Below are positions 5,514 through 42,982 of a stretch of DNA of 48,238 nucleotides, one piece after another (the first letter of the stretch is position 1; every line of letters starts with the position of its first letter). Source of the DNA: a virus (Duplodnaviria > Caudoviricetes); IMG/VR virus record IMGVR_UViG_3300029286_000065, positions 1 through 48,238 of that record. The stretch is one strand, 5' to 3'. The translations under genes were made by a program, and so were the position numbers. The notes under the pieces are model-generated. The model made no database searches. It was given only the letters and a program-made list of their open reading frames with translations, and had not been told where the DNA came from.

Positions 5514-5687
5514 ATGGAATCATCTGGTGAAGATTTAACCCTGTTTAATACTTATGTTGATTTATTTAAAAAAATAAATTCAACATTAAAAAAAGTAGTG
5601 ACAAAAGAAAATGGAAAAAGTGTTGATGTTGGATCTTATAATATGGGGTATGATAAACAGGGAAATTTAAAATTATTGGATTTTTGA
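5514..5687 (+). CDS. 57-aa ORF, possible protein-kinase-like C-terminal fragment
   Basis: Hand-read MESSGEDL...VDVGSYNMGYDKQGNLKLLDF*; D-x4-N then DF spacing as in kinase folds; TGATG overlap with the next gene. Confidence 0.4.
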   Translation: MESSGEDLTLFNTYVDLFKKINSTLKKVVTKENGKSVDVGSYNMGYDKQGNLKLLDF

Positions 5688-17217: not shown

Positions 17218-19017
17218 ATGGCACACTTTATAGTAGATAAGCCAAAAGCTTTAAAAAAATGGAATCCAATTTTAGAAGCCCTTAAAGTAAAGGACGATGA
17301 AAAAAGAGAATGGATGTCCGAATATGCTGAAATGCACCAGCTTCATATCAATGAAAACGTTGCATATACAACATTAAACCAAAATGGTATGGGTAATATT
17401 CTTGCCCCAACCGTTGGTACAATTCCTGCTTCCGTGTGGCAAGTCGGTGCTGGTGCAATTGGTTCTGGTGATGTTGCACAAAACTTACTTCCAGTAAGTA
17501 TGAAAATTGCAGCTCAAACAATTGGTTTAGACCTTGTTGCTGTAAAACCAACAGCTTCTCCAAGAATTGAGTTGTTATTCGTAGATTTTAAATACGATAA
17601 CGCTTATGGTGATGGAAGTCGTGAAGATCAAGATGCTGAACAAAGACCATTAGTTTTTAAAATTACAACTACATCACAAGATGCAGCTTTAGTTACTGCA
17701 TTACAATTACAACTTTCTGTTCTTGGAATTAAAGAACGTATTGGTGGAATTTCACAAAGAATGTGGGTAAAGTTAGAAGCAACTACAGCTGCTATTTTAG
17801 CAGTTGGTCCTTTAACTAATTCAAAACAAAATTGGTTGGAATTTTTAGGATTCTCACGTATTGACGGTCATCCAATTTTCCGTTGTTATCGTCAAGCTGG
17901 TTTTTCAGTTGGTGCATTAGTACCACAAGATGGTGCACCTGCATGGTCACAAACTAAAAATACATTTGATCAATCAACCGCAATGGCCACAACAATGGCT
18001 GGTGGTTTCTGGTATATTAATACAGTTGTAGCTACACATGTTCCTACAACAGTAGCAGCTACTGGTTACTTATCAGGTTTAACTATTCAATTGGTTTCAT
18101 TATTAGAAGATCAATTACCGGGATTCTCTGGTGGTTTCAATGATTTTGAAACTCCTTGGACAACTGGTGTACAAGACAACTACAAATCACAAGGTGGTGG
18201 CCCGATGAACCGTTATCAAGATGAAAAAACTTATCCAAGTGTAATTGGACCTGACGTATTTACTAAGGTTGTTACAGTTGGTGACATCGAAATCAGTTCA
18301 ACTTTAAAACGTACTCAAATCGAAGATATTAAAGCTGCAACTGGAATGGACATTGTTCAAAAATTGGAAGGTGTTCTTATCAATGAATTAACACAAGTTA
18401 TTTCAAAAGAAATCGTTGCTAAAATTAGAAGTTTAGCTTTGAAAAACAGAGTTTCTCACACTGCACCTAAAAATGCTGATGGTACAAGTAAATTCGACTT
18501 CGATGTTGATACTTACGCTGTTGCAGCTAACGCACCGGGGGGTGAAACTACACATACATTACAACGTAAATTAGTTGCGAAGATTAATAACGCTTCTAAC
18601 TTTATTGCTACTGATGGTCGTATCGGACCGGCTCAATATTTAGTAACAAACGGTAACATCGCTTCCGTATTACAAGATATCGCTGGTTATACACTTAACC
18701 CAACAAATGTTGGTAAATTGAACACAAACGGTCAATTATACCCAATGGGCAATATAGGAAATATTCAAATATATGTTGACCCATATATGAGATGGGATGA
18801 TAATTATGTTTATATTGGAAGAAAAAATACTATTGATCAACCGGGTCTTATTTTCATTCCTTATTTAATGGCACAATCTATCAGTTTAATTTCTGAAGCA
18901 ACTTGGGCACCTAGAATGTTAATTCGTTCAAGATATGCAGTAAGTGATATTGGTTTCTTTCCAGAAAAACAATTTATGGCTTTATCAGTTACCGATACTC
19001 ATGGTTATTTAATTTAA
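17218..19017 (+). CDS. Major capsid protein (T4 gp23-like)
   Basis: KW.PIL N-terminus, IGLDLVAVKP..SP, INEL...I.KEI spine helix, IYVDPY, GLIFIPY, P.M..RSRY; follows protease/scaffold; strong terminator downstream. Confidence 0.93.
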   Translation: MAHFIVDKPKALKKWNPILEALKVKDDEKREWMSEYAEMHQLHINENVAYTTLNQNGMGNILAPTVGTIPASVWQVGAGAIGSGDVAQNLLPVSMKIAAQTIGLDLVAVKPTASPRIELLFVDFKYDNAYGDGSREDQDAEQRPLVFKITTTSQDAALVTALQLQLSVLGIKERIGGISQRMWVKLEATTAAILAVGPLTNSKQNWLEFLGFSRIDGHPIFRCYRQAGFSVGALVPQDGAPAWSQTKNTFDQSTAMATTMAGGFWYINTVVATHVPTTVAATGYLSGLTIQLVSLLEDQLPGFSGGFNDFETPWTTGVQDNYKSQGGGPMNRYQDEKTYPSVIGPDVFTKVVTVGDIEISSTLKRTQIEDIKAATGMDIVQKLEGVLINELTQVISKEIVAKIRSLALKNRVSHTAPKNADGTSKFDFDVDTYAVAANAPGGETTHTLQRKLVAKINNASNFIATDGRIGPAQYLVTNGNIASVLQDIAGYTLNPTNVGKLNTNGQLYPMGNIGNIQIYVDPYMRWDDNYVYIGRKNTIDQPGLIFIPYLMAQSISLISEATWAPRMLIRSRYAVSDIGFFPEKQFMALSVTDTHGYLI

Positions 19018-23792: not shown

Positions 23793-23819
23793 AATTTACT
23801 GTTTAAATATTAATTATTA

Positions 23820-23827
23820 CAAACTTA
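23820..23827 (-). promoter_or_regulatory. Bacteroidota-type -7 element (TAAGTTTG)
   Basis: TAnnTTTG about 28 nt upstream of ATG 23792. Confidence 0.5.
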
Positions 23828-23851
23828 ATTAAAAATTATTTAATAAAAAAA

Positions 23852-28643: not shown

Positions 28644-29228
28644 TTAATCTGGAAAATCATAAGTTGGACTAAAAACATCATCTAAATCTAAATTTTTAAT
28701 TTTTGATTTTTTTTCTATTTTTTTCAATTCTATTTCTTCTGGTGTTAAATCCTCTTCATCAAATTCAATTTCTTTTAATTTGGTTGGTCTTTTATTTGAC
28801 ATTTTATTTAAATCATAAAGTATTTTATATGTTAATTTATATTCTTCTTTATTATTATTGACCAAAATCAACGTTACAGTATATTTCCTTTTTTTCATAG
28901 CACCAAATCCCAATAATCCTCTACTACCATCGGGTGTTGCCGCTAATTCAAGTATATTTTCAGGTTCCAATCTACCATCAGATTCATTTATACCAAAAGT
29001 TATTTCATCACCATTAATAATAGGTTTTTTAACTTCAGCGAAATTCATTTGAAGAATTTTTTCAACTGATTTTAAAACTTCTTCTGGAAAATCGGTTGAT
29101 TTGGTGTCTAAGTCAATTTTATCCCCATAATCGGATAATTCTTGATCATCGTCATTATCATCGTCATTATTTTGAATATTCAAATTTTCTTTTACGAATG
29201 TTTTATAATTTTTAAGTGATTTTTTCAT
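28644..29228 (-). CDS. Hypothetical protein with a capsid-targeting-like leader
   Basis: MKKSLKNYKTFVKE; acidic tracts; late motif at 29256. Confidence 0.7.
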   Translation of the reverse strand: MKKSLKNYKTFVKENLNIQNNDDDNDDDQELSDYGDKIDLDTKSTDFPEEVLKSVEKILQMNFAEVKKPIINGDEITFGINESDGRLEPENILELAATPDGSRGLLGFGAMKKRKYTVTLILVNNNKEEYKLTYKILYDLNKMSNKRPTKLKEIEFDEEDLTPEEIELKKIEKKSKIKNLDLDDVFSPTYDFPD

Positions 29229-29255
29229 AGTTTTTATTTTTTTTTAACTTTATTT

Positions 29256-29264
29256 TATATATTA
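29256..29264 (-). promoter_or_regulatory. Putative late promoter TAATATATA
   Basis: Exact motif upstream of ATG 29228. Confidence 0.6.
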
Positions 29265-29285
29265 AAAAATAAAACGATTTTTTCA

Positions 29286-30893
29286 TTACAATTTAGATAA
29301 TCTACCCAAAACTGTCTGTTTCTTACCCATATATTCATCATGGTTTTTGATTTCTGCAATTGCTGATATAATATCACCAACATAAATATTTTGTGTATCT
29401 TCCATATTACTTTTCTTAACAACGAATTTAGGATTGATAATTCCAAATTTTGTAAAAATGTTTCCGTTTTGGTCTTTTAATTTATAAACATTAGACCAAC
29501 CATATTGAGTTTCAAATCCGCCAATATGAATAATTTCAAGATTTTCCAATTTCATTTTTTCACCAATAACCCCAACCCATTCAGATTCTTGTTTAATATT
29601 CGCATATAATTTACCAAAATAAAAAGAACAAGCTCCACTAATATAGTAAATTAAACGAGTCTTAACATAACCCATTTTTATAAAATTTGATGCGTTAAAC
29701 AAGAAATTATTTTCCTTGTTTTCTTCAATATAATCAATTACATCTTGGATCTGTGGATCATTATCACGAATTGTCTCTAATCTTGGATAATATACATCAT
29801 TACAAAAATCTTTCCAACTACTATATTCATCCCTATTGTTTATTCTTGGTGGTGTATTGGCGTATGATACATCCCCTTGAACAGATTGAGATGTTGATGA
29901 TACAAGTTTAATATTAGGATTTGGATTCTCTTCCATTTTTTTGGAATTTATCTTTTCCGCTGTGGATTTAGACATATAACCCCTATTCTTATACCACCAA
30001 ATATAATATCTAATGATTTCATTAACCGAAACTGTATCTTCTACCCAACGACCACCACCCATTCCATCATAATCATCATCAAAACCACCACCATCATTAT
30101 CCCAACTTTCAGAAATGAAAGAAATATCTGTCAAATATGTTAAAACTTTTTCGTAATCGTAACCAAGATAATTTTTGATACAAGTTCCACCAACTTTAAT
30201 AATGGAACCATCTTTTATTTTTTGAATGAAAACCGTTTTTTTACGATAAATATTTTTATGACAGTGATCACATTCTGATTTTTCCATGTTGACCATATCA
30301 ATCGGAATTTGTTGTCCGGGTGCTGGTTTTAATAAATTGTCAATGTAATCAAAAGTTCCTAAAATGATCCATTCATCTTCTGGTTTAATGACTGTTACCA
30401 TTGTTAAATCGTAAACTTCAACATCTTTGGAAACGATTTTCCAAGGGGATTTATCTTTTCCATCCAATTTTGTTTTTAATGTTGATTTTACTTGTTCAAT
30501 TTCCGATAAATCATCGGTATAATTTTTACCATTTGAAAAATTTTCACGATAATAATTGATACTATGATCACCATATGAAACAAAAGTATAATATTTTTTT
30601 GTTTCAATGAGTTTCAGAATAGGAACCGGAATTTTAATGAATTTACAAATTCTTGTGACTCTTTTGATAATCTTATCAAAAGTTGCTTTCTTGTCATCGT
30701 ATTTCGAACCGGCTTCACCACCAACTGGAATTTCAATTTTCTTTGTTTCTAATGTATAAAACAATTTAATGTTCTTGCCATCACTAACTTCTTGAACCTG
30801 ACTTTCTTCTTTCAAAAAAGTCTGGTAATCATTTACGATTTTTTCCATTTGGTTTAAGTTTGATGATACAAAATTACGATATTTATAGTTCAT
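29286..30893 (-). CDS. Phage protein with a Zn finger and a C-terminal OB-fold-like domain; capsid-targeting-like leader
   Basis: CDHC...R...VGGTC..YLG; SEWVG.IGE...ETQYG...H.EY.G.KQT.L.R; MEKIVNDYQTFLKE from ATG 30848. Confidence 0.65.
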   Translation of the reverse strand: MNYKYRNFVSSNLNQMEKIVNDYQTFLKEESQVQEVSDGKNIKLFYTLETKKIEIPVGGEAGSKYDDKKATFDKIIKRVTRICKFIKIPVPILKLIETKKYYTFVSYGDHSINYYRENFSNGKNYTDDLSEIEQVKSTLKTKLDGKDKSPWKIVSKDVEVYDLTMVTVIKPEDEWIILGTFDYIDNLLKPAPGQQIPIDMVNMEKSECDHCHKNIYRKKTVFIQKIKDGSIIKVGGTCIKNYLGYDYEKVLTYLTDISFISESWDNDGGGFDDDYDGMGGGRWVEDTVSVNEIIRYYIWWYKNRGYMSKSTAEKINSKKMEENPNPNIKLVSSTSQSVQGDVSYANTPPRINNRDEYSSWKDFCNDVYYPRLETIRDNDPQIQDVIDYIEENKENNFLFNASNFIKMGYVKTRLIYYISGACSFYFGKLYANIKQESEWVGVIGEKMKLENLEIIHIGGFETQYGWSNVYKLKDQNGNIFTKFGIINPKFVVKKSNMEDTQNIYVGDIISAIAEIKNHDEYMGKKQTVLGRLSKL

Positions 30894-30900
30894 AAAAAAA

Positions 30901-31055
30901 TTATTTCGTTTCTTTTTTAACCAATGTTACTAAATTGTCTAATGAATCTAAAATATCTAATTTTTCACCATCAGTTGTTCTTTTCCAATCTGAAGTTTTT
31001 TATAAGTTTGATTATCAGATTCGGTTATTAATTGAAATTCTTCTAAATGTTTCAT
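30901..31055 (-). pseudogene. Small tagged ORF, possibly frameshifted
   Basis: MKHLEEFQLITE...MVKN* (31055-30957); the -1 frame after an A6 run continues TSDWKRTTDGEKLDILDSLDNLVTLVKKETK* to 30901. Confidence 0.4.
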
Positions 31056-31468
31056 TATTTTATATAATTTAATTTATTTAAACCACTGTAAATATCTGAT
31101 ATTCTACATTTTAACACAACTTGTTTCTTTTGTGAAGTCCATGATGTAGATTTTGAATCAACAATGAAAGCTACAATATAAATTAAATCTCCACGTTTAA
31201 CTTCCTTCTGTAAATCTGTTTGAAAAACTGGACTACCACTAATAGCTTCTTCAAGTTTTTTAATTCTTTCTTTATCCGTAATAATGTCTGTAATTTGTAA
31301 AATTTTTATTGGTTCTGTAATTTTTTCAATTTCACCATTTTCAAGTTCACGTAGTGCTGTAATATCATCAGACAAAGGTTCGAATTCCATTGTTTTTTTG
31401 AATTTTTTAACTTTATCGTCTTTAAATTCAGAAAATTTAGTTGTTATATTTGTTTTCTCTTTACTCAT
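31055..31468 (-). CDS. Hypothetical protein with a weak capsid-targeting-like leader
   Basis: 137 aa; ITTKFSEFKD. Confidence 0.65.
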   Translation of the reverse strand: MSKEKTNITTKFSEFKDDKVKKFKKTMEFEPLSDDITALRELENGEIEKITEPIKILQITDIITDKERIKKLEEAISGSPVFQTDLQKEVKRGDLIYIVAFIVDSKSTSWTSQKKQVVLKCRISDIYSGLNKLNYIK

Positions 31469-31775
31469 TTGATTTTTTCAAGGTGATTATTTTATAGTCA
31501 TCAACATTTTCAATTTTTGATATTGAACTCAATGGAAACATACTTGGATTAGCAACTGGTGTTATTTCAGGCCAATATTCAACCAATCCATTTTCTTTTG
31601 GATTTTTATGTTGAAAATAAATTATTTGTCCAATAACATACATATAATTATGATTGTCAAATTTAAATAAATCACCAGATTTTAACCCCCTACAATATTC
31701 ATCTGGGACAATATCAAATTGATTATAATTTAACATTTCGTTTATAAATGTTTTAAATTTCTTTATTCTTTTCAT
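31461..31775 (-). CDS. Hypothetical protein with a capsid-targeting-like leader (start corrected to ATG 31775)
   Basis: MKRIKKFKTFINE; the late motif at 31801-31809 lies between the track start and this ATG. Confidence 0.7.
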   Translation of the reverse strand: MKRIKKFKTFINEMLNYNQFDIVPDEYCRGLKSGDLFKFDNHNYMYVIGQIIYFQHKNPKENGLVEYWPEITPVANPSMFPLSSISKIENVDDYKIITLKKSNE

Positions 31776-31800
31776 TTTATAATGATTATTTTTCTTTAAG

Positions 31801-31828
31801 TATATATTAATTTTTATTTTAATATATA
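31801..31828. promoter_or_regulatory. Back-to-back divergent putative late promoters (31801-31809 minus, 31820-31828 plus)
   Basis: Two exact TAATATATA copies pointing at ATG 31775 and ATG 31857. Confidence 0.65.
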
Positions 31829-31856
31829 ATAATAAAAAAGAAACAAATATAACAAA

Positions 31857-32855
31857 ATGAAAAAACAAACAAATAAAGTTAAAAAATTTAATCAATTTGT
31901 AAATGAAAATATTATTGTTATTGATTATATATTAGATAAAATTAACAAACATGGTATAGAATCTTTATCTGAAAAGGATAAAGATGTGTTAAACGGTGTT
32001 TATCAGAATAAAAAAATAGATGTTTCTCTAATAGAAAATGAAATCTTTACGATGTTATGTAATAATGAAGATGAAGATAATATATTATTTGATATAGAAG
32101 AAGAAACAAATATACATAGTCATGATATATTGCCAATATACTATTATTGTAAAAAAGTTTATGATAACATAGAAGAACTATTTAATAATTTAAGTGAATC
32201 TCCAAGTGTATATGATTTTTTTGAATTTTTTGTTTCTTATAATACTGATAGTTATTTATCATTATTTAATAACGATAAAGAATGGATTATAACTAAATCA
32301 TTTAAAGAATCCTTTGAAAATGAAGATATAGATTTAGATGATGAAGATTTTGATAATATGAAATATGATATAATTAAATGTTTTGAATTAGAAGAAATAA
32401 AGGATAAATTTGGAACTTTCAATCTAAATAAAGAAAAAGAAATATATTCAGACCAAGATATATCTAAACCAGAAAATTTTATACCCAAATCTGGAGATGT
32501 TGGATCAAAAATGAATGGTGGTTTACTAGTTAACAAGGAACAAAAATTAATTGTTTCTGAAATCGATTTGGGTCAGACTGATTGGGAAAATGCTAAAAAA
32601 TTATGTTCCGATTATAGGGGTGGTGGTTTTAATGACTGGCGTTTACCGACTAAAGATGAACTAAACCAAATTTATTTATTATATAAAATGAATGTTGATA
32701 ATTTACTTCCCCATTCCTATTGGAGTTCCTCAATACATTTATCTATTTACTATTGGGTGCAGTATTTTGTCGGTGGACATCAGAACTTCACTAATAAGAC
32801 TAACAAGTTTTGTGTTCGTCCTGTCAGGAATTTTATTAATTGTTCATTAAATTAA
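31857..32855 (+). CDS. Tagged protein with a DUF6576-like helix, an acidic region and a C-terminal DUF1566/Lcl C-type-lectin-fold domain; candidate DGR target
   Basis: VKKFNQFVNE; IDYILDKINKHGIESLSEKDK.VL; W.NAK..C...GGFNDWRLPTKDEL...YWSSS...VRPVR. Confidence 0.8.
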   Translation: MKKQTNKVKKFNQFVNENIIVIDYILDKINKHGIESLSEKDKDVLNGVYQNKKIDVSLIENEIFTMLCNNEDEDNILFDIEEETNIHSHDILPIYYYCKKVYDNIEELFNNLSESPSVYDFFEFFVSYNTDSYLSLFNNDKEWIITKSFKESFENEDIDLDDEDFDNMKYDIIKCFELEEIKDKFGTFNLNKEKEIYSDQDISKPENFIPKSGDVGSKMNGGLLVNKEQKLIVSEIDLGQTDWENAKKLCSDYRGGGFNDWRLPTKDELNQIYLLYKMNVDNLLPHSYWSSSIHLSIYYWVQYFVGGHQNFTNKTNKFCVRPVRNFINCSLN

Positions 32856-32914
32856 ACAATTGTACAAATCAATCCAATCACATTTCATTTTAAAATTCCA
32901 TCTTTAAATAAAAA

Positions 32915-33229
32915 ATGAAATATTTATTAAACAAAATTAAATTTTTTCTGATATACAATAAGAAAAAAGTTATCGTTATGAACATTCAATTTGTAAATTA
33001 TAAAAAATTTGAAATAGAAAAAAATGATTTTTCTGTTTCAGAAGAAACTGGTGAAATGATAAAAGGTGAAAAGAAAATAAGTGTGGTGTATATGGGTTCG
33101 GTGTCATTTTCACCGGATCGTATCATCGATTTTTTAAAAAATTTAGAAAAACAATGTACAATAGGTAAAAGAGAAGTTTATATATATGAAAATTCAACTT
33201 GTGAAGATTTTTGTTATGCTATTGTATAA
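32915..33229 (+). CDS. Hypothetical protein (start may be the internal MNIQFV)
   Basis: ORF track; the N-terminal part is low complexity. Confidence 0.55.
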   Translation: MKYLLNKIKFFLIYNKKKVIVMNIQFVNYKKFEIEKNDFSVSEETGEMIKGEKKISVVYMGSVSFSPDRIIDFLKNLEKQCTIGKREVYIYENSTCEDFCYAIV

Positions 33230-33243
33230 TATCAGAATAAATA

Positions 33244-33798
33244 TTAAATTGTAATTTTATTTTTATTACTTATGAATCTTGGAGAAGCCTTCGAAATATA
33301 AAAATCAAAATTTGAATTTTTCTTCTTTACTTTCTTCAATATATCAATAATAATTTTGTCAATATTTGATTTTGATTTACCTTCAATTCTTCTATATCCA
33401 CTTGAACTGAAACCAAAGTCATTAGTTTCTTCAATTCTATTCAATAAAAGGAAATTTGGATCATCATAAATATTATTATTTGTTAATTTAATTTCTTTGT
33501 TCATCCATCCATGAGAAAACGGATTATCTTCCTTTGCAACATATAAATTTCCATCAATATCAACTATCACTCTAACATTCGGTTCGAAATTATCCAATGA
33601 TTTTGGATTTTTATAAACAGGTGTTGAATATCGAATGTCATTAAAACCAGACCCATTAACATAACCAAAAGGTTTTTCTTCTTCATCTTCATTGATGTAT
33701 TTATTCGTAGTATCAGGTATATTAAATTCTCTTTGTGCATATTTATCCGCGACACCCTCTAATTGTTTAAAATTTTCAAAAGTTTTTAAATTTTTCAT
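33244..33798 (-). CDS. Hypothetical protein with a capsid-targeting-like leader
   Basis: MKNLKTFENFKQLE. Confidence 0.7.
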   Translation of the reverse strand: MKNLKTFENFKQLEGVADKYAQREFNIPDTTNKYINEDEEEKPFGYVNGSGFNDIRYSTPVYKNPKSLDNFEPNVRVIVDIDGNLYVAKEDNPFSHGWMNKEIKLTNNNIYDDPNFLLLNRIEETNDFGFSSSGYRRIEGKSKSNIDKIIIDILKKVKKKNSNFDFYISKASPRFISNKNKITI

Positions 33799-34109
33799 TT
33801 TTTCATTAAAGGTTTTTCAGATTTTTTATCTGAATCACTAAGATTTTTAGACACTCTAAATCTCCACTTATCTATTCTTTTTAATTTATCTTTCTTTTTC
33901 TTATCACCGGAAAAAAAATCACTTTTAACATTAATTGGTACAAGTCCTAACAAATGTTTATCACCTGTGGGGTGTCCAATCACATCTATGATGGTATTAC
34001 CATTAGATAATTGTGTTGGATTGTTATTAAATCCACTACTATTACTACCGTAACCAACATTACGATAATCTTCTTTAATGAATTCACTATATGTTAAAAT
34101 TTTATCCAT
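33795..34109 (-). CDS. Hypothetical protein with a basic tail and a capsid-targeting-like leader
   Basis: MDKILTYSEFIKE, close to T4 IPIII MKTYQEFIAE. Confidence 0.7.
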   Translation of the reverse strand: MDKILTYSEFIKEDYRNVGYGSNSSGFNNNPTQLSNGNTIIDVIGHPTGDKHLLGLVPINVKSDFFSGDKKKKDKLKRIDKWRFRVSKNLSDSDKKSEKPLMKK

Positions 34110-34124
34110 TTCTTTAATTTTTCT

Positions 34125-34133
34125 TATATATTA
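34125..34133 (-). promoter_or_regulatory. Putative late promoter TAATATATA
   Basis: Exact motif 15 nt upstream of ATG 34109. Confidence 0.6.
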
Positions 34134-34171
34134 ATTTTTTTATCTCAATAATTTTTATATATCTTTATATT

Positions 34172-34930
34172 ATGAAAAAAATTTTAACTATTGGAGATTT
34201 GCACGGCAGAACTATTTGGAAAACATTTGCTGATATTAAATTTTTACTTACAGCAGAAATTGGTACAGCTGGTTATGCACCATTTGAACCCGATTATGAT
34301 TTGTTTATTTTTCTTGGTGATTATACGGATTCGTTTACTGAAAGTAATGAAACTATTCGTGAAAATCTTTTAGAAATCATTAGATTCAAAACTTTATATC
34401 CTAATAATGTTATTTTGCTTTGGGGTAATCACGATATTGAATATTATTTAAATAAACCTTGGTTACCGTTAAAAACTGCAATTAGTGGATTTCGATCTGA
34501 AATGCATTATGATATATATGAAATTTTTAAAAAAAATGAAAATCTTTTTCAAGTTGCATTTCAAATAGAAAATTATATTTTTTCCCATTCTGGAATTCAC
34601 TTTGATTGGTATTTTCATGTTTTCACCAAAGCTATCAAAGATATGGGGTGGGATGATTTAAGTGTTGCTGACCAAATCAATAATGCATTTAATCAACGTA
34701 TAGATTGTGTATTTGATGTCGATCATTATCGTGGTGGTTATAAAAAAGTTGGAGGACCATTATGGTGTGATAAAAGATTGATGGAAAAAAAACCACTAAA
34801 AAACACAAGACAAATTTGTGGACATAATCCAGTTAATGATATAACAACTATTAATATAAACGATAATACCAGTATAACTTTTTGTGATGTTTTGCATAAG
34901 AAAAATACTTATTATTCACTTAATATTTGA
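34172..34930 (+). CDS. Calcineurin-like metallophosphoesterase
   Basis: GDLHG, GDYTD, GNHD, SHSG and GH motifs. Confidence 0.9.
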   Translation: MKKILTIGDLHGRTIWKTFADIKFLLTAEIGTAGYAPFEPDYDLFIFLGDYTDSFTESNETIRENLLEIIRFKTLYPNNVILLWGNHDIEYYLNKPWLPLKTAISGFRSEMHYDIYEIFKKNENLFQVAFQIENYIFSHSGIHFDWYFHVFTKAIKDMGWDDLSVADQINNAFNQRIDCVFDVDHYRGGYKKVGGPLWCDKRLMEKKPLKNTRQICGHNPVNDITTININDNTSITFCDVLHKKNTYYSLNI

Positions 34931-35483
34931 TAATATCAATTATTTTTATTTGATTACTATCAAAAACAATCCAATCATATCTATCTGGTTTATCACCATA
35001 ATATTCAATTTCATTCAAATATTCAATAGAATCATAACCTTCCATTTTTAAATAAGATTTATAATAAAAAGATAGTGTTTTATTTTCAACAATATTATTA
35101 TCCAACATTTCATCAACAATAGAATCTTCATTCATGGATATTGTATGATATGGGAGTTTTAACAATTCATCCAATTCTTCTGTTTTTATATTTAAAAGAC
35201 CAGTTTCATCTCCCCACTTTAACATATTTCTAACTAAATCACCTTCATTTATTTTTAATGTTTTATTAACGGTTATTTCTACTTCATAAATAACCTTATC
35301 AGGTTTTTTTGCAAATTTATTTGCCACATCTTTATTTGGTGTAAAATGATAACCAAGATAACTCAACAAATGATTATCTTTTCCCAGTTCATTCTGATTA
35401 AATTTATTAAATAAATGTCTGGAACCATGATACAAATGGGGAATTGATTCGTTTTTTTCAAATATTTGGAAATTGGTTATCAT
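34920..35483 (-). CDS. ADP-ribosyltransferase-like (ART-PolyVal-type) protein, tagged; start likely ATG 35483
   Basis: MITNFQIFE; LYHGS...F..F...LG...GYHFT....A..FA...GYDSI.Y.NE.E...F...QIK; ATGA overlap with the upstream paralog. Confidence 0.65.
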   Translation of the reverse strand: MITNFQIFEKNESIPHLYHGSRHLFNKFNQNELGKDNHLLSYLGYHFTPNKDVANKFAKKPDKVIYEVEITVNKTLKINEGDLVRNMLKWGDETGLLNIKTEELDELLKLPYHTISMNEDSIVDEMLDNNIVENKTLSFYYKSYLKMEGYDSIEYLNEIEYYGDKPDRYDWIVFDSNQIKIIDIIKY

Positions 35484-36079
35484 GGATTTAACATTGGTTT
35501 TTGATCCCATACGTGGATTATTTTTATTTGATTTTCATTGAATGCAATCCAATCGAATCTATCAATTTCAGGTAATTCTATTTCATTTTCATATTTAATT
35601 GAATCATAACCTTGTTTAATTAAATAATCTTTATATGACAAAGATATTTTTTTAGAATCTTCGGATTTTAAATATAACAATTTATGAGATATCGTTTCTT
35701 GTGATATTTCATAATAAGGTAATTTTAAAATTTCATCAAAAATTCTATTTTGTCGGTTAAAAATATATTTATTTATTATATTATTTTCAACACCAAATTT
35801 TAACATATTTCTAACTAAATCACCCTCTTTAATTATTAATGGTTTGTTAACTTTTAATTCAACTTCATAAATAACATAATCTGGTGGGTTCATAAATCTT
35901 TCAGCAACAATTTCATCTTCAGAAAAATGACAACCCAAAAAACTCAAAAGATGACCATCCTTACCTAATTTATTGAAATCAAAGAGTTCAAATTTGGTGG
36001 AACCGCCATGAAATAATGGTCCAACAGTATATTTGGTTTGTTCATTTAAGAAATTTTTATAATACAATAGATGGTTCAT
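35480..36079 (-). CDS. ADP-ribosyltransferase-like protein, tandem paralog of 34920-35483, tagged
   Basis: MNHLLYYKNFLNE; LFHGG...GCHFS...GYDSIKYENEIE...FNENQIK; shares EGDLVRNMLK with its neighbour. Confidence 0.65.
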   Translation of the reverse strand: MNHLLYYKNFLNEQTKYTVGPLFHGGSTKFELFDFNKLGKDGHLLSFLGCHFSEDEIVAERFMNPPDYVIYEVELKVNKPLIIKEGDLVRNMLKFGVENNIINKYIFNRQNRIFDEILKLPYYEISQETISHKLLYLKSEDSKKISLSYKDYLIKQGYDSIKYENEIELPEIDRFDWIAFNENQIKIIHVWDQKPMLNP

Positions 36080-36779
36080 TGTTCTTCGGTTTTATTTTTA
36101 TGTAGAATGAAATATCATCTTCCGAATCATCTATATAAGATTCAACTTTTTTACCCCAAGGAAATTTATTACACCAATCGGTAAAATATTTGTCTAAATC
36201 TTTTTCTTCTTTCAATTGATCTTTCGAAATAATTTTTCGAAGTCTTTGTGTTGTGATTATTGTAATAGTTTTACTTTTTTTATCTTGAAATAGATTTTTT
36301 AAATCCTTTTTAACTTCTTGTAATATTTTTAATGTTCTGGTATTTGTTTCCGACAGAACCCCATTAATTAATATTAGACATTTATAAGATTTTATACTTC
36401 TCACTTCTTTATCTTTCACTTCAAATTGTCCGGTTTTATAAATTATGTCTGTCATATCATTGTAAAAACCATATTCGATCATATTATTTCTAATACCAAA
36501 ATAAAAAGATAATCTTTCGGTATTTATTTTTTCATAAATATTAAATGTATTAATATTTGAGTCTTTAAATTCAAAAGCATCTGATATATCAATTGGTTTT
36601 TTAATTATTTCGGTTCTGAAAAAATAAAGAAAATTTCCAGTATTTAAATAATTACTAGTTTTAACAAAAGAAAAATTTAATTCATCCAATGTATGCAAAA
36701 ACATGTAAAAACCAAAACGACCATCTATTGGGTGATTTTGATTATTCTCTTTTATATATGTCAAGAAGTCTTTTACCAT
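36057..36779 (-). CDS. Hypothetical protein with a capsid-targeting-like leader
   Basis: MVKDFLTYIKE. Confidence 0.7.
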   Translation of the reverse strand: MVKDFLTYIKENNQNHPIDGRFGFYMFLHTLDELNFSFVKTSNYLNTGNFLYFFRTEIIKKPIDISDAFEFKDSNINTFNIYEKINTERLSFYFGIRNNMIEYGFYNDMTDIIYKTGQFEVKDKEVRSIKSYKCLILINGVLSETNTRTLKILQEVKKDLKNLFQDKKSKTITIITTQRLRKIISKDQLKEEKDLDKYFTDWCNKFPWGKKVESYIDDSEDDISFYIKIKPKNNEPSIVL

Positions 36780-36784
36780 ATGGT

Positions 36785-36793
36785 TATATATTA
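36785..36793 (-). promoter_or_regulatory. Putative late promoter TAATATATA
   Basis: Exact motif only 5 nt from ATG 36779. Confidence 0.55.
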
Positions 36794-36803
36794 AAAAATA
36801 AAA

Positions 36804-37505
36804 TTATTTTTTAATGACATAATAATATGTATTTGAATCTGGGAAGAATTTACTTTTGCCAATTAATAAATCATATTTATCTTTAAAGGAATCTTTAATA
36901 GATTTATTATAAAATTTTATTTTTTGGGGGTTGTTTGTGTCTGAAATCATGTAAATGGGATTGACCAACTCATCTATCATTTTTAACAAAATATACGATA
37001 AAGCATTAAATATTTTGATAGTATCACCCAATTTTGTTTCTTTTTCAACAATATTTTGTAATTTTAAAAACTCTTTTTCATAATCTTCTAATTTTAATTT
37101 TGATAATTCTTTTTCAAAATTATCATATTGTTTTTTAGTTGTAAAAAATATATTATAAACAACTTCATTATGAAATAATTCATTATCTTCTATCAAATAT
37201 TCTAATACTAAAATATAATCTATATCATTCACAGTAAAAAAACATCTAATATCTTTTCCATTTGAAAATCTTAACGACTTAAAATAATTAAAACCGAAAT
37301 CAATATAATTTGGATAAAATTTTATTTCATTTATTAGACACATATATCTATCATATGTAAGAATTCCATGTTTAAATTTTTGTTCTGGGTGATAATTCAT
37401 TTTATTACCAAAATACTCTCTTATTTCATCCGTTGATTTTTTTTCTTTAATCATTTGACGATATTTATCATTTACTTCTTTTGTCCAAATCTCATTAAAT
37501 TTCAT
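36804..37505 (-). CDS. Hypothetical protein
   Basis: 233-aa ORF. Confidence 0.7.
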   Translation of the reverse strand: MKFNEIWTKEVNDKYRQMIKEKKSTDEIREYFGNKMNYHPEQKFKHGILTYDRYMCLINEIKFYPNYIDFGFNYFKSLRFSNGKDIRCFFTVNDIDYILVLEYLIEDNELFHNEVVYNIFFTTKKQYDNFEKELSKLKLEDYEKEFLKLQNIVEKETKLGDTIKIFNALSYILLKMIDELVNPIYMISDTNNPQKIKFYNKSIKDSFKDKYDLLIGKSKFFPDSNTYYYVIKK

Positions 37506-37550
37506 AAATAATTTTTTATTCTTATATGTTATTAATTTTGAATTGTTTAA

Positions 37551-37694
37551 ATGTTAATTTCTAAAACATCTTCTATTTGTTTCATTAAAATCAAACCCAA
37601 TAACAAAAGATGTTATGACAATCAATCAGAAAAAGAAATATTAGTGTTTGATACATTTTATTCGGATATTTTAAAAATTGAAATTATATCTTAA
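37551..37694 (+). CDS. Possible 47-aa ORF or gene remnant
   Basis: Hand-read MLISKTSSICFIKIKP...DNQSEKEILVFD...IEIIS* filling an intergenic gap. Confidence 0.25.
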   Translation: MLISKTSSICFIKIKPNNKRCYDNQSEKEILVFDTFYSDILKIEIIS

Positions 37695-38363
37695 ATTAAA
37701 TCTATTTTTATATTGAAATATTTTTTATCTAATTTATGTGGATAAATAATATCAAAAATTTTATTGTTTAATGGACCAAATTCAAATTCAGTATTTCTAT
37801 CAAATCTATTATAATATGGTGATTTCCCACCTTTTGTAATTCTAATTTCAAATGGATCACTTGGAGATTTTGCGTTATGTAATGTAACAATTTCACCTTC
37901 TTCAAAAATATAATTTTTTATAATTGTTTCTAATTCAGCTTTTAATTTTAGATTTTCAGCTTTTATTTCAGCCTTTGTTCTTTCTTTATCTGCTAATCTA
38001 AAATATTTATTATTTTGTCCTCTTTTTTTCAATGAATATAAAATATCAAGAACATCTTCACGAATTTCTTCTTCTGATGAATTGTCATATTCACTAAAAA
38101 TTTTCCACATAATTTTTCCCTCTTTTCCCAAACCAGCTAAATCTGTTTTACCATATTTATTTTCAATTCCAATATATTGACGAATATGCATTTGAATTGA
38201 ACCTATTGATACGTTCATTATATGGGATAATTCAGTTTCATCTTGAATACCTAATTTTTTTAGTCCGAATTTATGATAATAAAAGATATTCTTTACTCCA
38301 AGGTTCTTTGTTTGATAAATCAGATTCATTTAAAAATTCTAAAAATTCAAATATATGTTTCAT
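37691..38363 (-). pseudogene. Tagged protein split by an apparent +1 frameshift near 38281
   Basis: ATG 38363 MKHIFEFLEFLNE...KEYLLLS* (stop 38271) overlaps the 212-aa frame ...YYHKFGLKK...; late motif at 38384. Confidence 0.55.
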
Positions 38364-38383
38364 AAAGTTAAATTATTTTTAAC

Positions 38384-38392
38384 TATATATTA
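38384..38392 (-). promoter_or_regulatory. Putative late promoter TAATATATA
   Basis: Exact motif 20 nt upstream of ATG 38363. Confidence 0.6.
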
Positions 38393-38402
38393 AATTTAAT
38401 TT

Positions 38403-39209
38403 TTAAATCTTAATTCTTTCTTTACCCTTATTTGCAGTATTGAAAATATAATAATCGACAGCGACATCCAAATCTTTTTCCTTAAAGAAGTCTGTCATAT
38501 GTTTTACGGTATTTTCATCATCATCCGAAAATCCAACTTTTAATTTAGCACCAACTCTTGTGGCAAAATTTTGTAATCTTGTTAAAAAAGCATCAATAGC
38601 TATTTCTTTTCCATATTCTACTTTTTGTGTAATTTCAAAATCAAACCCAAATCTATTTCTAAAATATTTAGACATAATACCAATAAATTCACAAGTGTCC
38701 AAATAGGAACAAATCGTTGCATCTTTAGAATTAAATAATTTTTGAAATTTTTCCAAATTTTTTGACATTTTATCCCTTTGTTCTTGAGTTAAATAATTAC
38801 AAATCAACCATTTTACAAATTTTTTAATTGTTTCTGGTTCGTGACCTCTTGCTGTAATTATAAGAAAAACATTTCCGTTAACAATAGTATTTATGAAATC
38901 TTTAAAACTTGGACCAAAATTACTATTTTTAATTGCTGATTTTGCATCTTCCAAAAAAGCTTTATCCCCCCTTGGACCAGTATCTCTAAATTCTTGAAAT
39001 GTTAATTTTAAATCATTATTTCTTCTTCTCCACCCTTTTTGTTTTCTTATTTTTGCAAATTCTTCTGGTAAAACATCTTTCGGAACCCATTTACCATTTT
39101 TTAAAACATCAATATGAATGGGAGTTGACATATGGAGTAAATTATTATCTATATCAAAAATAAAGTACTTGAGTGTTTTTTGTTTAAATGTATTGAACTT
39201 TTTAATCAT
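38403..39209 (-). CDS. HAD-superfamily hydrolase-like protein with a tag-like N-terminus
   Basis: FDIDNN (motif I), ITARGH (II), K (III), FSDD (IV); MIKKFNTFKQK. Confidence 0.75.
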   Translation of the reverse strand: MIKKFNTFKQKTLKYFIFDIDNNLLHMSTPIHIDVLKNGKWVPKDVLPEEFAKIRKQKGWRRRNNDLKLTFQEFRDTGPRGDKAFLEDAKSAIKNSNFGPSFKDFINTIVNGNVFLIITARGHEPETIKKFVKWLICNYLTQEQRDKMSKNLEKFQKLFNSKDATICSYLDTCEFIGIMSKYFRNRFGFDFEITQKVEYGKEIAIDAFLTRLQNFATRVGAKLKVGFSDDDENTVKHMTDFFKEKDLDVAVDYYIFNTANKGKERIKI

Positions 39210-39239
39210 TAAATTTATATGAAAAAATAATTGAAATGT

Positions 39240-39680
39240 TTATTCTTCATTTCCAAAATATAATATACCATCATCACCCAAATAAATATCCATTTCACCC
39301 AATTTATGTGCAGAGTCCATTAAAATTTTTTCGATATCATCGTCATATCCCCTATCAAAAAATCCAGCACCATGATGATTTCTGGTTAACCAAATATCGT
39401 GACCCAATTGATCTTCGTCTATACCATTAACTGCATCACCTGCATATTCTAAAAATAATTTGATGTCTTGATATGCTTTTATTTTCGAATCATCTGAAAA
39501 ATTATGAATATTTAAATCAGCTTCCGGAATAAATTGTTTTATTTCATCACTATATTCAGAATTATTTTCATCATCCAACCTTTCTTCTTCCGTCCATATA
39601 GCACATTCCAGATAACTATTCATAATTTTTATTATGTCTAATTTTGTTTTGAATTCTTCGTATAATTTCAAATATTTCAT
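39240..39680 (-). CDS. Phage hypothetical protein with a capsid-targeting-like leader
   Basis: MKYLKLYEEF; YLECAIW...GHDIWLTRNHHGAGFFDR...Y.GDDG. Confidence 0.75.
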   Translation of the reverse strand: MKYLKLYEEFKTKLDIIKIMNSYLECAIWTEEERLDDENNSEYSDEIKQFIPEADLNIHNFSDDSKIKAYQDIKLFLEYAGDAVNGIDEDQLGHDIWLTRNHHGAGFFDRGYDDDIEKILMDSAHKLGEMDIYLGDDGILYFGNEE

Positions 39681-39720
39681 ATTTTATTATGTCTAATTTT
39701 GTTTTGAATTCTTCGTATAA
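39627..39720. repeat. Perfect 39-bp direct repeat (39627-39665 and 39682-39720)
   Basis: TTTTATTATGTCTAATTTTGTTTTGAATTCTTCGTATAA twice, bracketing ATG 39680. Confidence 0.9.
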
Positions 39721-39759
39721 GATGTCGTGGATTTCTTTTGAAATTTTTTTAAAATTTTT

Positions 39760-42264
39760 TTATGTCCAGTTTAAATTAACAAAATTTTCAGTATAAATAT
39801 TTTTATCAGCGTTATCAGCCAATATTAATTTATCAGCGTTTGTAATAATATTTTGATTTAATGTATTATTTATTTCATCTGTTGGAATAACATCATTAAA
39901 TATTCTTAAATTAGTATATTTAATATTAGAACCCAAAACATAAAGATCGATGTCATGGATATAATTTTCCGGTTCAATATCATAAAATGTTTCTTTTATT
40001 GTTTTAAATATGGTTGAAAGTGAATGTAATTCGGTGTTATTAACTGGTTTAAATCCGGCATTTATTAAATATGTATAACCTGTTGTATCCATCCAAGATA
40101 TTGTTTGAACTTGAAAACTATTTGGTTCCATAAAAGTTATATTATAATCATTATCTCTACTATATAATTTTATTTCCAATATTTTTTGTCTTTGATCTAA
40201 TATAATAACCAAACCATACCAAATATTTGTTAATAAATTAACATTTTTTAATTTATAAAATTGATTATTGATTTGAAAATTGATATCTTTTTTGAAATAC
40301 CAAATTCTATAACCAAGTTTGGTTGTTTCATCATAGTTATTTAATAAATAAAAATTTGTATTTTGTTCAATATCATAATATTTCCAAGCGTTTCTACTTG
40401 GGTTTAAAGTATCCCAACTATTATTAAAATTAAACCAAGTAATAAAACTACGATTATCTGAAACATTTAGAATATTATCTGTTTTTTTGAAAATGACAGA
40501 TTGTTTACCAACAGTATCTTTAAAATCATAATAATTTACTGCAAAATTTATATTTCCATTTAAAATATCTTGTTTAATTCTTAGTACTTTATTATTAACA
40601 ACAAATCTCATAGGATCAAATGAAAATGGTTTGAATTGGTCTTTATTCGCTATTTTATCACCATCTTCTTTTATTTCATTACCAAATAATTCATCCATAG
40701 TTGTATTTTTAGTAAGAGTATCCAATTTGAATTTACTTTCTGTTGATAAATTCATAATATTTGCTTTTTGTTCGTATTTTTCTAACATGACTTTGTAATA
40801 GATACCCGCATTCATGACATCTCTGAATATGTTTGCGCTTTTAACATAAAATAAACGATTAATAGAACATATAAATAAAATATCATCTTCGGATGGTCTT
40901 TTTGTTATTCCGAATTTATTTTTAAATTCATCTTTCATAATCTGAATTTCAAAAGTATCAAATAAATCTAAAGCGAATACATTAGATTTTAATTGATTGT
41001 CTGGAAATTTATTTTCGGGTACTATAATCTTAATTGTTTTAACATCTATTATATTTTTCAATTGATATTCGTGTAAAATGAAATCTGTTCCATTTCTATC
41101 TGGATCAGTTAAATGATAATCACAATCCCAAGCGAATAAATTGCTAACTTGATTTGCTAAAGTATTATAATATTGAGTTATTGATTGTATATTATATGGT
41201 TTCCATAAATTATTCGAATTTGCATCATTTTCGGCTTGTAAATTTGTCATTACATTATTGGTTATCGAATAACAACTCAATCCTTGTGTGTAAAAGTCTA
41301 AATTCAAATCATATGTTGACACCGCGGAACCATATGGTTTAACTGTATTCCAATTTACCGGATTATTTATATCATATGAACTAACGTTCATCCCACATAT
41401 TTCTGTTACACCAGTAGATTTAAAAAAAGTTGTTAAACAATCTTGACGAATACCATATTTATTTGTTTTTAAATAATTTGCTGATACATTTTGAAAATCA
41501 CCAATGATAATAATATCAATTATATGCGCAGGTTCCGGATCATCTGTATATGGTGTTATCAAATATTCTATTCTCGCAAAACGAAGTTCATTGAATTTAT
41601 ATGTTGAAATATTTTCTTTTGTGAGTGGTTCCCAATCAGAATATGTTCTACCATCGTTTTGTGTAACTCTATATTTAATATTTAGATTTGCAATATTTCC
41701 ATATCCTTGTATTTGAAAATCCGATACCGAAAATATTTTAAATATATCTCTTGGAACAATAACAATTGGTGTTGTTCCAGATATATCAACATTAACATCC
41801 GAATATGTTAAATCATATTTACCTGTTAATGTTATATTTGAAACGTATATTGGTGTTCTGAGATGATAATTATCAAAAGGTGGATCATCCACTCTAAAAA
41901 TATAAAATTCAAAATCAAACGGGACTGTTGGACTAAAAGTAAAACCGGATAATATTAGTTCATAATCAAATGAAGTGGTTGTTCCTGTTGAAATTGTTGT
42001 TAATGGTATTAAATCACTCCAGCAATCACCACATTTCATCGCATCTGAATCCGGAACATTTTTATATTTAAAATAGATTTTAAGATATTGATAGTTTTTA
42101 ATTCCTTCAACCGTCATATTAAGTTGATCTAAACTTTTAACACCCATAATTGGTGAGGTAATAACCATTTTTAAAGTATTACCAGTTGGATAATTAAGAA
42201 TATCAGTACCAATAAAATTTATTGTGAATGTTTCATCAAATTTTTTACTAAGTAAATAATTCAT
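39760..42264 (-). CDS. Neck/head-closure protein (T4 gp14-like core) with N- and C-terminal beta-rich extensions
   Basis: F.LDLFDTFEIQI.K.EF...RPSEDDILF....RLFYV...YYKV.L.KYE resembles gp14 RP.EGDLIY; LamG-like C-terminus (TNIWYGLVI...NLRIFN). Confidence 0.6.
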   Translation of the reverse strand: MNYLLSKKFDETFTINFIGTDILNYPTGNTLKMVITSPIMGVKSLDQLNMTVEGIKNYQYLKIYFKYKNVPDSDAMKCGDCWSDLIPLTTISTGTTTSFDYELILSGFTFSPTVPFDFEFYIFRVDDPPFDNYHLRTPIYVSNITLTGKYDLTYSDVNVDISGTTPIVIVPRDIFKIFSVSDFQIQGYGNIANLNIKYRVTQNDGRTYSDWEPLTKENISTYKFNELRFARIEYLITPYTDDPEPAHIIDIIIIGDFQNVSANYLKTNKYGIRQDCLTTFFKSTGVTEICGMNVSSYDINNPVNWNTVKPYGSAVSTYDLNLDFYTQGLSCYSITNNVMTNLQAENDANSNNLWKPYNIQSITQYYNTLANQVSNLFAWDCDYHLTDPDRNGTDFILHEYQLKNIIDVKTIKIIVPENKFPDNQLKSNVFALDLFDTFEIQIMKDEFKNKFGITKRPSEDDILFICSINRLFYVKSANIFRDVMNAGIYYKVMLEKYEQKANIMNLSTESKFKLDTLTKNTTMDELFGNEIKEDGDKIANKDQFKPFSFDPMRFVVNNKVLRIKQDILNGNINFAVNYYDFKDTVGKQSVIFKKTDNILNVSDNRSFITWFNFNNSWDTLNPSRNAWKYYDIEQNTNFYLLNNYDETTKLGYRIWYFKKDINFQINNQFYKLKNVNLLTNIWYGLVIILDQRQKILEIKLYSRDNDYNITFMEPNSFQVQTISWMDTTGYTYLINAGFKPVNNTELHSLSTIFKTIKETFYDIEPENYIHDIDLYVLGSNIKYTNLRIFNDVIPTDEINNTLNQNIITNADKLILADNADKNIYTENFVNLNWT

Positions 42265-42285
42265 CGAAAAATTGATTTCATTTTT

Positions 42286-42294
42286 TAATATATA
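42286..42294 (+). promoter_or_regulatory. Putative late promoter TAATATATA (the TATATATA core may also serve the minus-strand neck gene)
   Basis: Exact motif in the 43-nt gap between divergent genes. Confidence 0.55.
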
Positions 42295-42307
42295 TAAAAA
42301 ATAAGTA

Positions 42308-42682
42308 TTGGAAATTTTGTTACTTAAAAGATTTAATGAATTTATTAAAATAAATGAAGAAAAAAAGGACGATGGAATTCATGTTGATGGTGATAGGCTT
42401 AAAATTATAAATAAAAGGAAAAAATCTATCAATCAAAAGTGGGTTTGTTTAATTGTTACAGATAAAACAAAATTAGATTTTGAAATAAAATATCCCGGAA
42501 GACCATTTGATATAAATTTAGGTAGTCATAGAATCTTTTTTAACATTAAAGATCCAAAAAATACTAAGTTAGAAATAGAAGAAGTGAAAAATAAGTATAA
42601 AGAAGGAAATATATATAATAAGAATGAGAATGATATGATAATACAAGTTAATTTTCACCAATATAGTCCACTAATTGATTAG
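42308..42682 (+). CDS. Hypothetical protein with a capsid-targeting-like leader
   Basis: LKRFNEFIKINE; TTG start uncertain. Confidence 0.65.
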   Translation: MEILLLKRFNEFIKINEEKKDDGIHVDGDRLKIINKRKKSINQKWVCLIVTDKTKLDFEIKYPGRPFDINLGSHRIFFNIKDPKNTKLEIEEVKNKYKEGNIYNKNENDMIIQVNFHQYSPLID

Positions 42683-42718
42683 ATGTCTTTTTCGGTGATA
42701 AAAAATAATAAAAAAGTA

Positions 42719-42982
42719 ATGGAAATTAAAAAATTTAACAACTTTATTTTAGAAAATAAAGAAAAAATTTCTGAAGAACCAAAAAAAGGTAGATGTAAAG
42801 ATTGTGGTAAGAAATTCAAGAAATGTAAATGTGAAAAAATTACAGAAACATCTTTAAATGAATCATCAGCTAAACAAAAAGCTGCCAGAGCAAAATTTTT
42901 AGAAATGATTCAAAAGAAAAAGGGGAAAAAGGAAGAAAAAGAAGGTAAAGACATTAAAAAATGTAAAAAAAGTGAAAAATAA
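42719..42982 (+). CDS. Small, very basic Cys-motif protein with a capsid-targeting-like leader (start ATG 42719)
   Basis: MEIKKFNNFILE; CKDCGKKFKKCKC; K-rich tail. Confidence 0.65.
   Translation: MEIKKFNNFILENKEKISEEPKKGRCKDCGKKFKKCKCEKITETSLNESSAKQKAARAKFLEMIQKKKGKKEEKEGKDIKKCKKSEK

Follow-up and report, generated by a model that had tools for sequence, protein, structure and literature searches.

Unrelated genes of a T4-like megaphage fragment share an N-terminal leader: probably T4-type capsid targeting in an expanded form

The 48,238-bp viral DNA analysed here (IMG/VR record IMGVR_UViG_3300029286_000065; "the window" always means this whole stretch) carries 17 genes whose products open with variants of a single short peptide, and in a 735-kb relative, LR756501, the same leader stands on about 10% of the genes, that is, about 100 of them. 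We propose that this leader is a portable capsid-targeting sequence (CTS) of the type carried by the T4 internal proteins IPII and IPIII, a reading to which we give a probability of roughly 0.78; genes alone were read here, and packaging and cleavage would follow by analogy with T4. Overall, we take it to be, most likely, the capsid-targeting system of T4 in an expanded form. The leader can be written [ILVM]-K-x-[FY]-x-x-[FY]-[ILVM]-[NK]-E, alongside a variant with Ile/Leu-Phe-Glu. An earlier sequence-only reading of this DNA had listed 17 such N-terminal peptides, and every one of them is present where it had been placed; the idea of many tagged cargos also held, at a scale larger than had been guessed.

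Within the window a strict regular expression matches 10 of 52 called open reading frames (ORFs), where shuffling the first 25 residues 200 times gives 0.84 (maximum 5); the comparison is circular because the expression was derived from the same leaders. The independent test was a profile trained on 16 window leaders (the one at 31055 excluded) and run on relatives with an ATG-based ORF caller and a threshold of at least 10 bits; it took in the whole of LR756501 and 400 kb each of LR756502 (642 kb), LR756500 (462 kb) and Lak-C1 (540 kb). In LR756501, 57 of 1006 first-ATG N-termini match this profile, compared with 1.4 in shuffles and 1.0 at internal positions, so that the leader is not equally frequent in shuffled sequence, a comparison that the sequence-only reading had suggested. 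The corresponding figures are 31 of 583 for the first 400 kb of LR756502 (0.7 expected) and 18 of 568 for LR756500 (1.3 expected), with PTm1 (2/310) and the scanned part of Lak-C1 (1/460) at background level only. Refined on LR756501, the profile finds 92 matches there (100 with alternative ATGs), 35 in LR756502 and 21 in LR756500, and a further 18 of 372 between 400 and 640 kb of LR756502 (versus 0.7); these counts are likely lower bounds, because sub-threshold variants are common. Scans with DNA patterns gave no clear leader expansion in RaK2, XacN1, phiM12, PAU, pT24, KVP40, PX29, CP220 or MaF61 (0-4 raw matches each).

The leader is portable. What follows it is mostly unrelated from gene to gene, as had been claimed: the 14 clustered leader ORFs of the window fall into 13 unrelated cargo families and the 100 of LR756501 into 82, and at one syntenic spot L002 has a different tagged gene, with another cargo inserted. 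The claim that it is absent from the NadD, YqeY, clamp-like, primase, metallophosphoesterase and fibre genes proved right, and the same is true of the cREC, portal and capsid genes; all score below 0, and the highest score outside the leader list in the window does not exceed 4.1. The cREC orthologue at L002 8758 scores 15.6 versus -6.7 for the window copy, which is probably a spurious match. We also considered the N-terminus of the capsid protein itself as a leader and ruled it out (score -7.7). Leader codons vary synonymously in near-genome proportions while F and Y, and I, L and V, interchange, and selection therefore acts on the peptide. Tagged genes are clustered in LR756501 (60 versus 34 shuffled) and not in LR756502 (4 versus 8 shuffled).

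T4 itself, unseen in training, provides a control. With the refined profile, the top three of 267 T4 ORFs are gp61.1 (23.3 bits), IPII and IPIII (22.2 bits each), the next one reaching 11.2, and the CTS of IPII and IPIII is removed by gp21 (Mullaney and Black, 1996, as given in the reviews PMC9958956 and PMC9026906). Mutagenesis in T4 has assigned targeting mainly to CTS residues 4 and 7 and processing to residues 8 and 10; Asp at position 10 blocks cutting but not packaging, and gp21 cuts after L/I-X-E (PMC9026906). The equivalent columns in 168 megaphage matches, which were selected by a profile that favours these columns, are 95% and 98% F/Y, 70% ILVM and 70% E. The product of gp61.1 (AF158101, 18966-19130), annotated as hypothetical, carries the highest-scoring CTS-like leader in T4 and is a candidate overlooked internal protein.

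A second line of evidence concerns the cut site. The pattern drawn up in the sequence-only reading ends in Glu, and 12 of the 17 window leaders do have [ILVFM]-x-E after the core, as do 83 of 100 in LR756501, 31 of 36 in LR756502 and 20 of 21 in LR756500, versus about 21% of other N-termini. The commonest leader ends, INE and LNE, show the same tripeptide signature as the window's protease-scaffold fusion, an 807-aa protein with eight [ILVM]NE sites versus 2.5 per 1000, five of the eight recurring in 25 or more of 26 aligned sequences. The protease-scaffold heads the ranking for such sites in the window and in LR756502, PTm1 and Lak-C1, and comes fifth in LR756501; in T4, a count of the same type for [IL]xE puts gp22 at the top. 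The capsid prodomain ends in Ile-Asn-Glu46, with a similar site in LR756501 and LR756502. On the strength of these shared sites, the leaders are predicted to be cut by the window's own gp21-like protease, and a conserved 429-aa protein encoded at 6844..8133 may be a prohead core protein. Co-folding the C-terminal domain of the scaffold (residues 620-807) with the leader alignment gave a score of 0.00, which has no bearing either way.

Upstream context in the relatives points in the same direction. The sequence-only reading had placed many leader genes behind an upstream motif, and exact TAATATATA indeed lies no more than 70 nt upstream of 7 of the 17. ATATATA stands 22-37 nt before the portal, protease, capsid, head-closure and fibre genes of the window and is absent before its NadD, YqeY, cREC, primase and phosphoesterase genes. 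It heads the gene, or the same-strand run to which the gene belongs, for 83 of 100 leader genes versus 285 of 836 others in LR756501, and for 35 of 36 versus 183 of 487 in LR756502. We infer that ATATATA may act as a late promoter shared with head genes.

Virion proteomes of other phages offer a retrospective link. P-SSM2 has two matches of at least 10 bits, an 86-aa ORF and, at the top, the T4-GC190 cytidylyltransferase, and the only one in Syn9 is its orthologue gp184. T4-GC190 was detected in purified S-SM1 virions with 25 counts (Sullivan 2010, PMC3037559, Table S8), and the S-SM1 protein starts with the leader; it was not detected in S-PM2 virions (PMC3037559), and the annotated S-PM2 copy lacks the leader. 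Long forms of T4-GC190 carry the leader, and the short forms (about 180-190 aa) of P-HM1, P-HM2 and Syn1 do not (PMC3037559 supplement). Further cyanophage virions are listed as containing this cytidylyltransferase/NMNAT-like enzyme, with contamination possible (PMC10665884). The passages on T4-GC190 in these two papers do not tie its packaging to a leader. For Atu_ph07 (PMC6102473), 131 of 140 listed virion proteins could be mapped by mass and order, plus gp594, and three of the top four profile matches (gp206, gp594 and gp33) are virion proteins. The Atu_ph07 virion list also shows a leader that is shorter and reads M-[RK]-hydrophobic-x-x-[LI]-x-E, with 18 first-ATG matches versus 0.41 in shuffles. 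Of the ORFs bearing it, 20 of 22 (10 of 11 families) are in virions, versus 110 of 812 others, although the expression was chosen post hoc, a single paralogue family accounts for 12 of the 22, and a further match is due to a chance internal Met in RNR. When 4520 patterns were ranked blind to the virion labels, two of this type came second and third, their families being in virions in 4 of 7 and 5 of 10 cases versus 110 of 764 (p about 0.01). DNA-pattern scans with the Atu_ph07-type leader gave few matches in RaK2 (7) or XacN1 (3). We regard the proteome support as partial; that from Atu_ph07 is real but moderate and concerns an analogue.

Several observations weigh against the capsid-targeting reading. 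T4 IPI scores only 3.7 with the refined profile, and we found no evidence for gp61.1 as a virion protein. Five of the 17 window leaders (5687, 31468, 33798, 39209 and 39680) lack [ILVFM]-x-E after the core, and two others (31055 and 38363) are frameshifted, both in the window and in contig L001. In the window ATATATA is not enriched at leader genes (7 of 17 versus 15 of 38 others, p=1.0), since it also precedes head and fibre genes, and the gene-or-run comparison is not significant there either (8 of 11 versus 15 of 38). The Syn9 T4-GC190 has the leader and was not detected in virions (PMC3037559; column order of Table S8 inferred). When all Atu_ph07 ORFs are taken together, virion and non-virion proteins are not told apart by the megaphage profile (p=0.58), a third, similar blind pattern has only 3 of 10 families in virions, and the virion preparation was purified with polyethylene glycol (PMC6102473). 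Among the best 120 homologues of the tagged HAD protein of the window, only 56 score at least 8, and some close ones are leaderless (some starts are truncated). Set against these points, the T4 control, the CTS positions, the shared cut site, the promoter context of the relatives and the proteomes of other phages together lend good support, by analogy, to the T4-internal-protein-like reading first proposed from the sequence.

As for the cargo, only 16 of the 103 tagged proteins of LR756501 have any Pfam match (E<=0.0005). Metabolic enzymes predominate among the clear assignments (a methyltransferase, PPK2, two radical SAM proteins, DeoC and CoaE, with a nucleotidyltransferase and OmpA as weaker matches), and Pfam gave no confident replication, terminase or tail family among the 103. 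PADLOC returned three weak matches for 16 window cargoes, all of them to 5687 (E of at least 0.0015). The step to an effector arsenal, which the sequence-only reading supposed to serve host takeover or anti-defence, is not shown. Its HAD label was confirmed by fold: the 39209 protein is modelled with a pLDDT of 92, with residues 1-8 below 50 and the leader outside the folded domain, and VIA alone matched it, to the T4 Pnkp 3'-phosphatase (Z 10.8, rmsd 3.1, 132 aligned), with nothing significant by Foldseek, PDB sequence/profile searches or Pfam. Its catalytic residues DxD, T, K and DD are invariant in 60 sequences, and the linkers are variable among the homologues. The ADP-ribosyltransferase (ART) label applies to 35483 and 36079, which match ART-PolyVal above cut-off, and is not supported for 5687 (E 2.1 with the ART profile of the window paralogues); a single-sequence model of the 36079 protein reached a pLDDT of only 40 and was set aside; Atu_ph07 gp381 was considered as a relative of the window ARTs and the link is weak. 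The "lectin" label corresponds to Pfam Lcl_C, and an NCBIfam search gave only Lcl-type matches. The 29286 protein matched only unnamed viral clusters in the ESM Atlas. The cargo appears to be a fast-turnover mix of NAD- or RNA-acting enzymes, metabolic enzymes and proteins without assigned family.

If the leader is a CTS, tagged proteins made late would bind the prohead core through the aromatic pair, and the leader would be trimmed after Glu while the fused protease destroys the scaffold; Glu-less copies would either be packaged uncut or be decaying. The trimmed cargo would be retained in the head and exit together with the DNA, a less certain step that we still hold more likely than not, and would act in the first minutes of infection. 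That its purpose is mainly anti-defence seems doubtful to us, although such a role may fairly be supposed for part of the cargo because T4 IPI and IPIII counter host defences (PMC9391042). Taken furthest, the proposal is that the three-protein tag of T4 became a genome-wide sorting code: in the largest known phages about 100 proteins, ADP-ribosyltransferases, an RNA end-healing-like phosphatase, polyphosphate kinase and radical SAM enzymes among them, would be co-packaged and injected as a starter proteome, newly acquired genes would join by gaining a 10-residue leader, and the code would account for enzymes found in cyanophage and jumbo-phage virions. We put this forward tentatively, as a possibility just short of even odds.

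The alternative that survives best accepts that the tag loads the prohead, and holds that most cargo is filler or scaffold (for volume, DNA condensation or control of head size for a 600-700 kb genome), or was captured by drift, and is degraded or inactive in the host. Acidic or low-complexity sequence is common in the cargo, whose net charge does not set it apart from other genes; two of the window genes are no longer intact, and in the examined parts of four other genomes homologues exist for only 18 of the 100 tagged genes of LR756501. Yet intact enzymes are hard to see as filler, be it the two ART-PolyVal proteins, the HAD protein with its invariant catalytic residues or the PPK2, radical SAM, DeoC, CoaE and methyltransferase proteins; PPK2, methyltransferase and HAD retain the leader across LR756501 and LR756502, and T4 IPI and IPIII do act in the host. 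We consider such an account unlikely for most of the cargo, while taking it seriously.

Less probable by a good margin of our judgement is that the peptide docks to something else, such as a membrane, a chaperone or a phage factory, with a coincidental Glu site. The i, i+3 spacing of the aromatic residues would fit a generic amphipathic helix, metabolic enzymes are unusual as capsid cargo, and these phages do use other portable motifs, since D-P-Y-G-E-E-x-W has 103 copies in 89 LR756501 genes. Against this stand the place of T4 IPII and IPIII among the top matches, the cut-site tripeptide common to scaffold and capsid prodomain, the late-promoter context and the virion detections in other phages. 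The D-P-Y-G-E-E-x-W peptide merits a mention of its own: copies lie, for example, at 552104-555792 of LR756501, 37 of them are C-terminal, and its synonymous codons vary freely. Neither the window nor any of the four further genomes scanned contains a match to it, and it is possibly a second sorting or docking code. Finally, the pattern might be an expression cassette acting at the DNA level, or a side effect of translation starts being AT-rich. This view, suggested by the AT-rich motif residues (K, N, I, F, Y), the low GC content and the promoter-like motif often found upstream, is already largely refuted and hardly credible, given about 1 match in composition-matched shuffles versus 57-92, the free exchange of codons and of F/Y and I/L/V, and the background level of the equally AT-rich Lak-C1 (26% GC) and PTm1.

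That the CTS may be a general loading mechanism of T4-like phages has already been suggested (PMC9026906), and what is new here is therefore the scale, the enzyme cargo and the retrospective link to proteomes. In the literature covered, which did not extend to subscription papers or to the original huge-phage survey with its supplements, we found no description of a CTS repertoire of roughly 100 genes in megaphages or of a leader link to the cyanophage and Atu_ph07 proteomes, and the same holds for a term search of a jumbo-phage overview (PMC7824862). If the capsid-targeting reading is true, the injected proteome of uncultured megaphages would become predictable from sequence, and each genome would yield some 100 candidate factors for a first strike in host takeover and counter-defence, T4 IPI and IPIII having proved to be anti-defence proteins. 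The leader would also give a testable reason for recurrent virion enzymes such as the cyanophage cytidylyltransferase, point to one use of such large heads and genomes, and provide hundreds of natural variants for mapping the CTS receptor.

Judged by its T4-type portal, its gp21-like protease fused to a scaffold and its Gp23 capsid protein, the window (26% GC) is a fragment of a T4-like megaphage. Its nearest records are uncultured megaphages: the capsid protein is 70.5% and the portal 74% identical to those of the 735,411-bp LR756501, and identity falls to about 50% with the 635-642-kb genomes, to 32-36% with LR756500 and to at most 28-33% with Lak and PTm1. The data sets in which this DNA is best represented are lake-water metagenomes, two of which may be its source, and no RNA data set was listed among those carrying it. 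The largest phage genomes, with predicted Bacteroidetes hosts, have been named Mahaphages (PMC12607003); the terminase gene, a marker for placement with them, is absent from the 48,238 bp. The IMG/VR contig L001 differs from the window by 1 mismatch in 21,560 nt and may come from the same sample. A 167-aa paralogue of the capsid N-terminal region lies behind TAATATATA at 27342-27845 (+), with several copies in LR756501 and one in L002. An exact 39-bp direct duplication flanks the start of the 39680 leader gene (39720-39682 and 39665-39627, - strand), possibly a trace of leader addition, or else an assembly artefact.

Table. Leader genes and other features of the window (score, leader profile)
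Feature	Position	Strand	Remarks
Leader gene, 349 aa, no cargo family	5687..6736	+	Score 9.3; Glu preceded by Tyr-Ile; no Pfam or PHROG match
Conserved 429-aa protein, candidate prohead core protein	6844..8133	+	Many [ILVM]NE sites in three megaphages; 65% identity LR756501, 45% LR756502
T4-type portal	10112..11923	+	Portal_T4 E 3e-64
Four homing-endonuclease-like genes	11916-14557 and 19108-21784		Inserted in head module
Prohead protease (S77, gp21-like) fused to scaffold	14692..17115	+	Peptidase_S77 E 6e-5 (below cut-off); phrog_207 E 1e-25
Major capsid protein	17218..19017	+	Gp23; end of prodomain is predicted maturation site
MazG-NadD fusion, YqeY, cREC cluster	22025-24274	-	No leader, no late motif
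Leader gene, 194 aa, acidic cargo	28644..29228	-	Score 21.9; own TAATATATA
Leader gene, phrog_2319 family with Cys pairs	29286..30893	-	Score 14.7; ORF opens at 30893, leader starts at second ATG (30848); leader kept in L002 orthologue
Short leader ORF, 32 aa, apparently frameshifted	30957..31055	-	Score 6.5; absent from L002
Weak leader gene, 137 aa, no cut site	31055..31468	-	Score 6.6; orthologues equally weak
Leader gene, 104 aa	31461..31775	-	Score 23.0; own TAATATATA
Leader, DUF6576 and Lcl_C domain (Pfam)	31857..32855	+	Score 25.8; own TAATATATA
Leader gene, 184 aa	33244..33798	-	Score 13.1; Glu preceded by Gln-Leu
Leader gene, 104 aa, Gly/Ser-rich then basic	33795..34109	-	Score 20.0; own TAATATATA; L002 orthologue
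Leader gene (Ile-Phe-Glu variant), ART-PolyVal ADP-ribosyltransferase-like	34920..35483	-	Score 15.6; PF18760 47 bits
Leader gene, ART-PolyVal paralogue	35480..36079	-	Score 18.6; PF18760 36 bits
Leader gene, 240 aa	36057..36779	-	Score 16.9; leader kept in L002 and LR756501 orthologues
Leader ORF, 30 aa (38271-38363), coding goes on in another frame (37691-38329)	37691..38363	-	Score 15.1; own TAATATATA
Leader gene without terminal Glu, HAD phosphatase	38403..39209	-	Fold nearest to that of the T4 Pnkp 3'-phosphatase
Weak leader gene, phrog_1915 cargo from residue 13	39240..39680	-	Score 7.0
Leader gene, TTG start (no ATG), about 121-124 aa	42308..42682	+	Score 19.6; own TAATATATA
Leader gene, 87 aa, basic, Cys pairs	42719..42982	+	Score 23.0

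Among known systems, the ejection proteins of phiKZ and SPN3US resemble the proposed one in forming a large protein load in the head that is processed after Glu. They belong to a different lineage and rely on long, multi-cut propeptides and paralogue families, not on one short portable tag. In Atu_ph07, as in the megaphages, scattered unrelated proteins, there of the virion, share a short basic-hydrophobic leader ending in L-x-E; its spacing is a shorter one of 8 residues and the megaphage profile mostly misses it, so that it is best called an analogue, homology not being shown. The cyanophage T4-GC190 is, like the megaphage cargo would be, a virion enzyme whose long form opens with the same leader, whereas leader matches are few in P-SSM2 (2) and Syn9 (1) and T4-GC190 is not homologous to any window cargo tested. 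T4 remains the closest comparison. The megaphage leader, like the T4 CTS, is N-terminal, about 9-19 aa long, with an aromatic pair at i/i+3 and an L/I-x-E end, and the head module of the window has a T4-type portal, a Gp23 capsid protein and a gp21-like protease. The megaphage leaders differ from the T4 CTS in a variable extension before the core, the I/L-F-E variant and Glu-less copies, and the system, known here from genes alone, differs from that of T4 in a protease fused to the scaffold, in a cargo that includes proteins of 300-800 aa and enzymes and, above all, in extent, with about 100 tagged genes in LR756501 where T4 has three profile matches.

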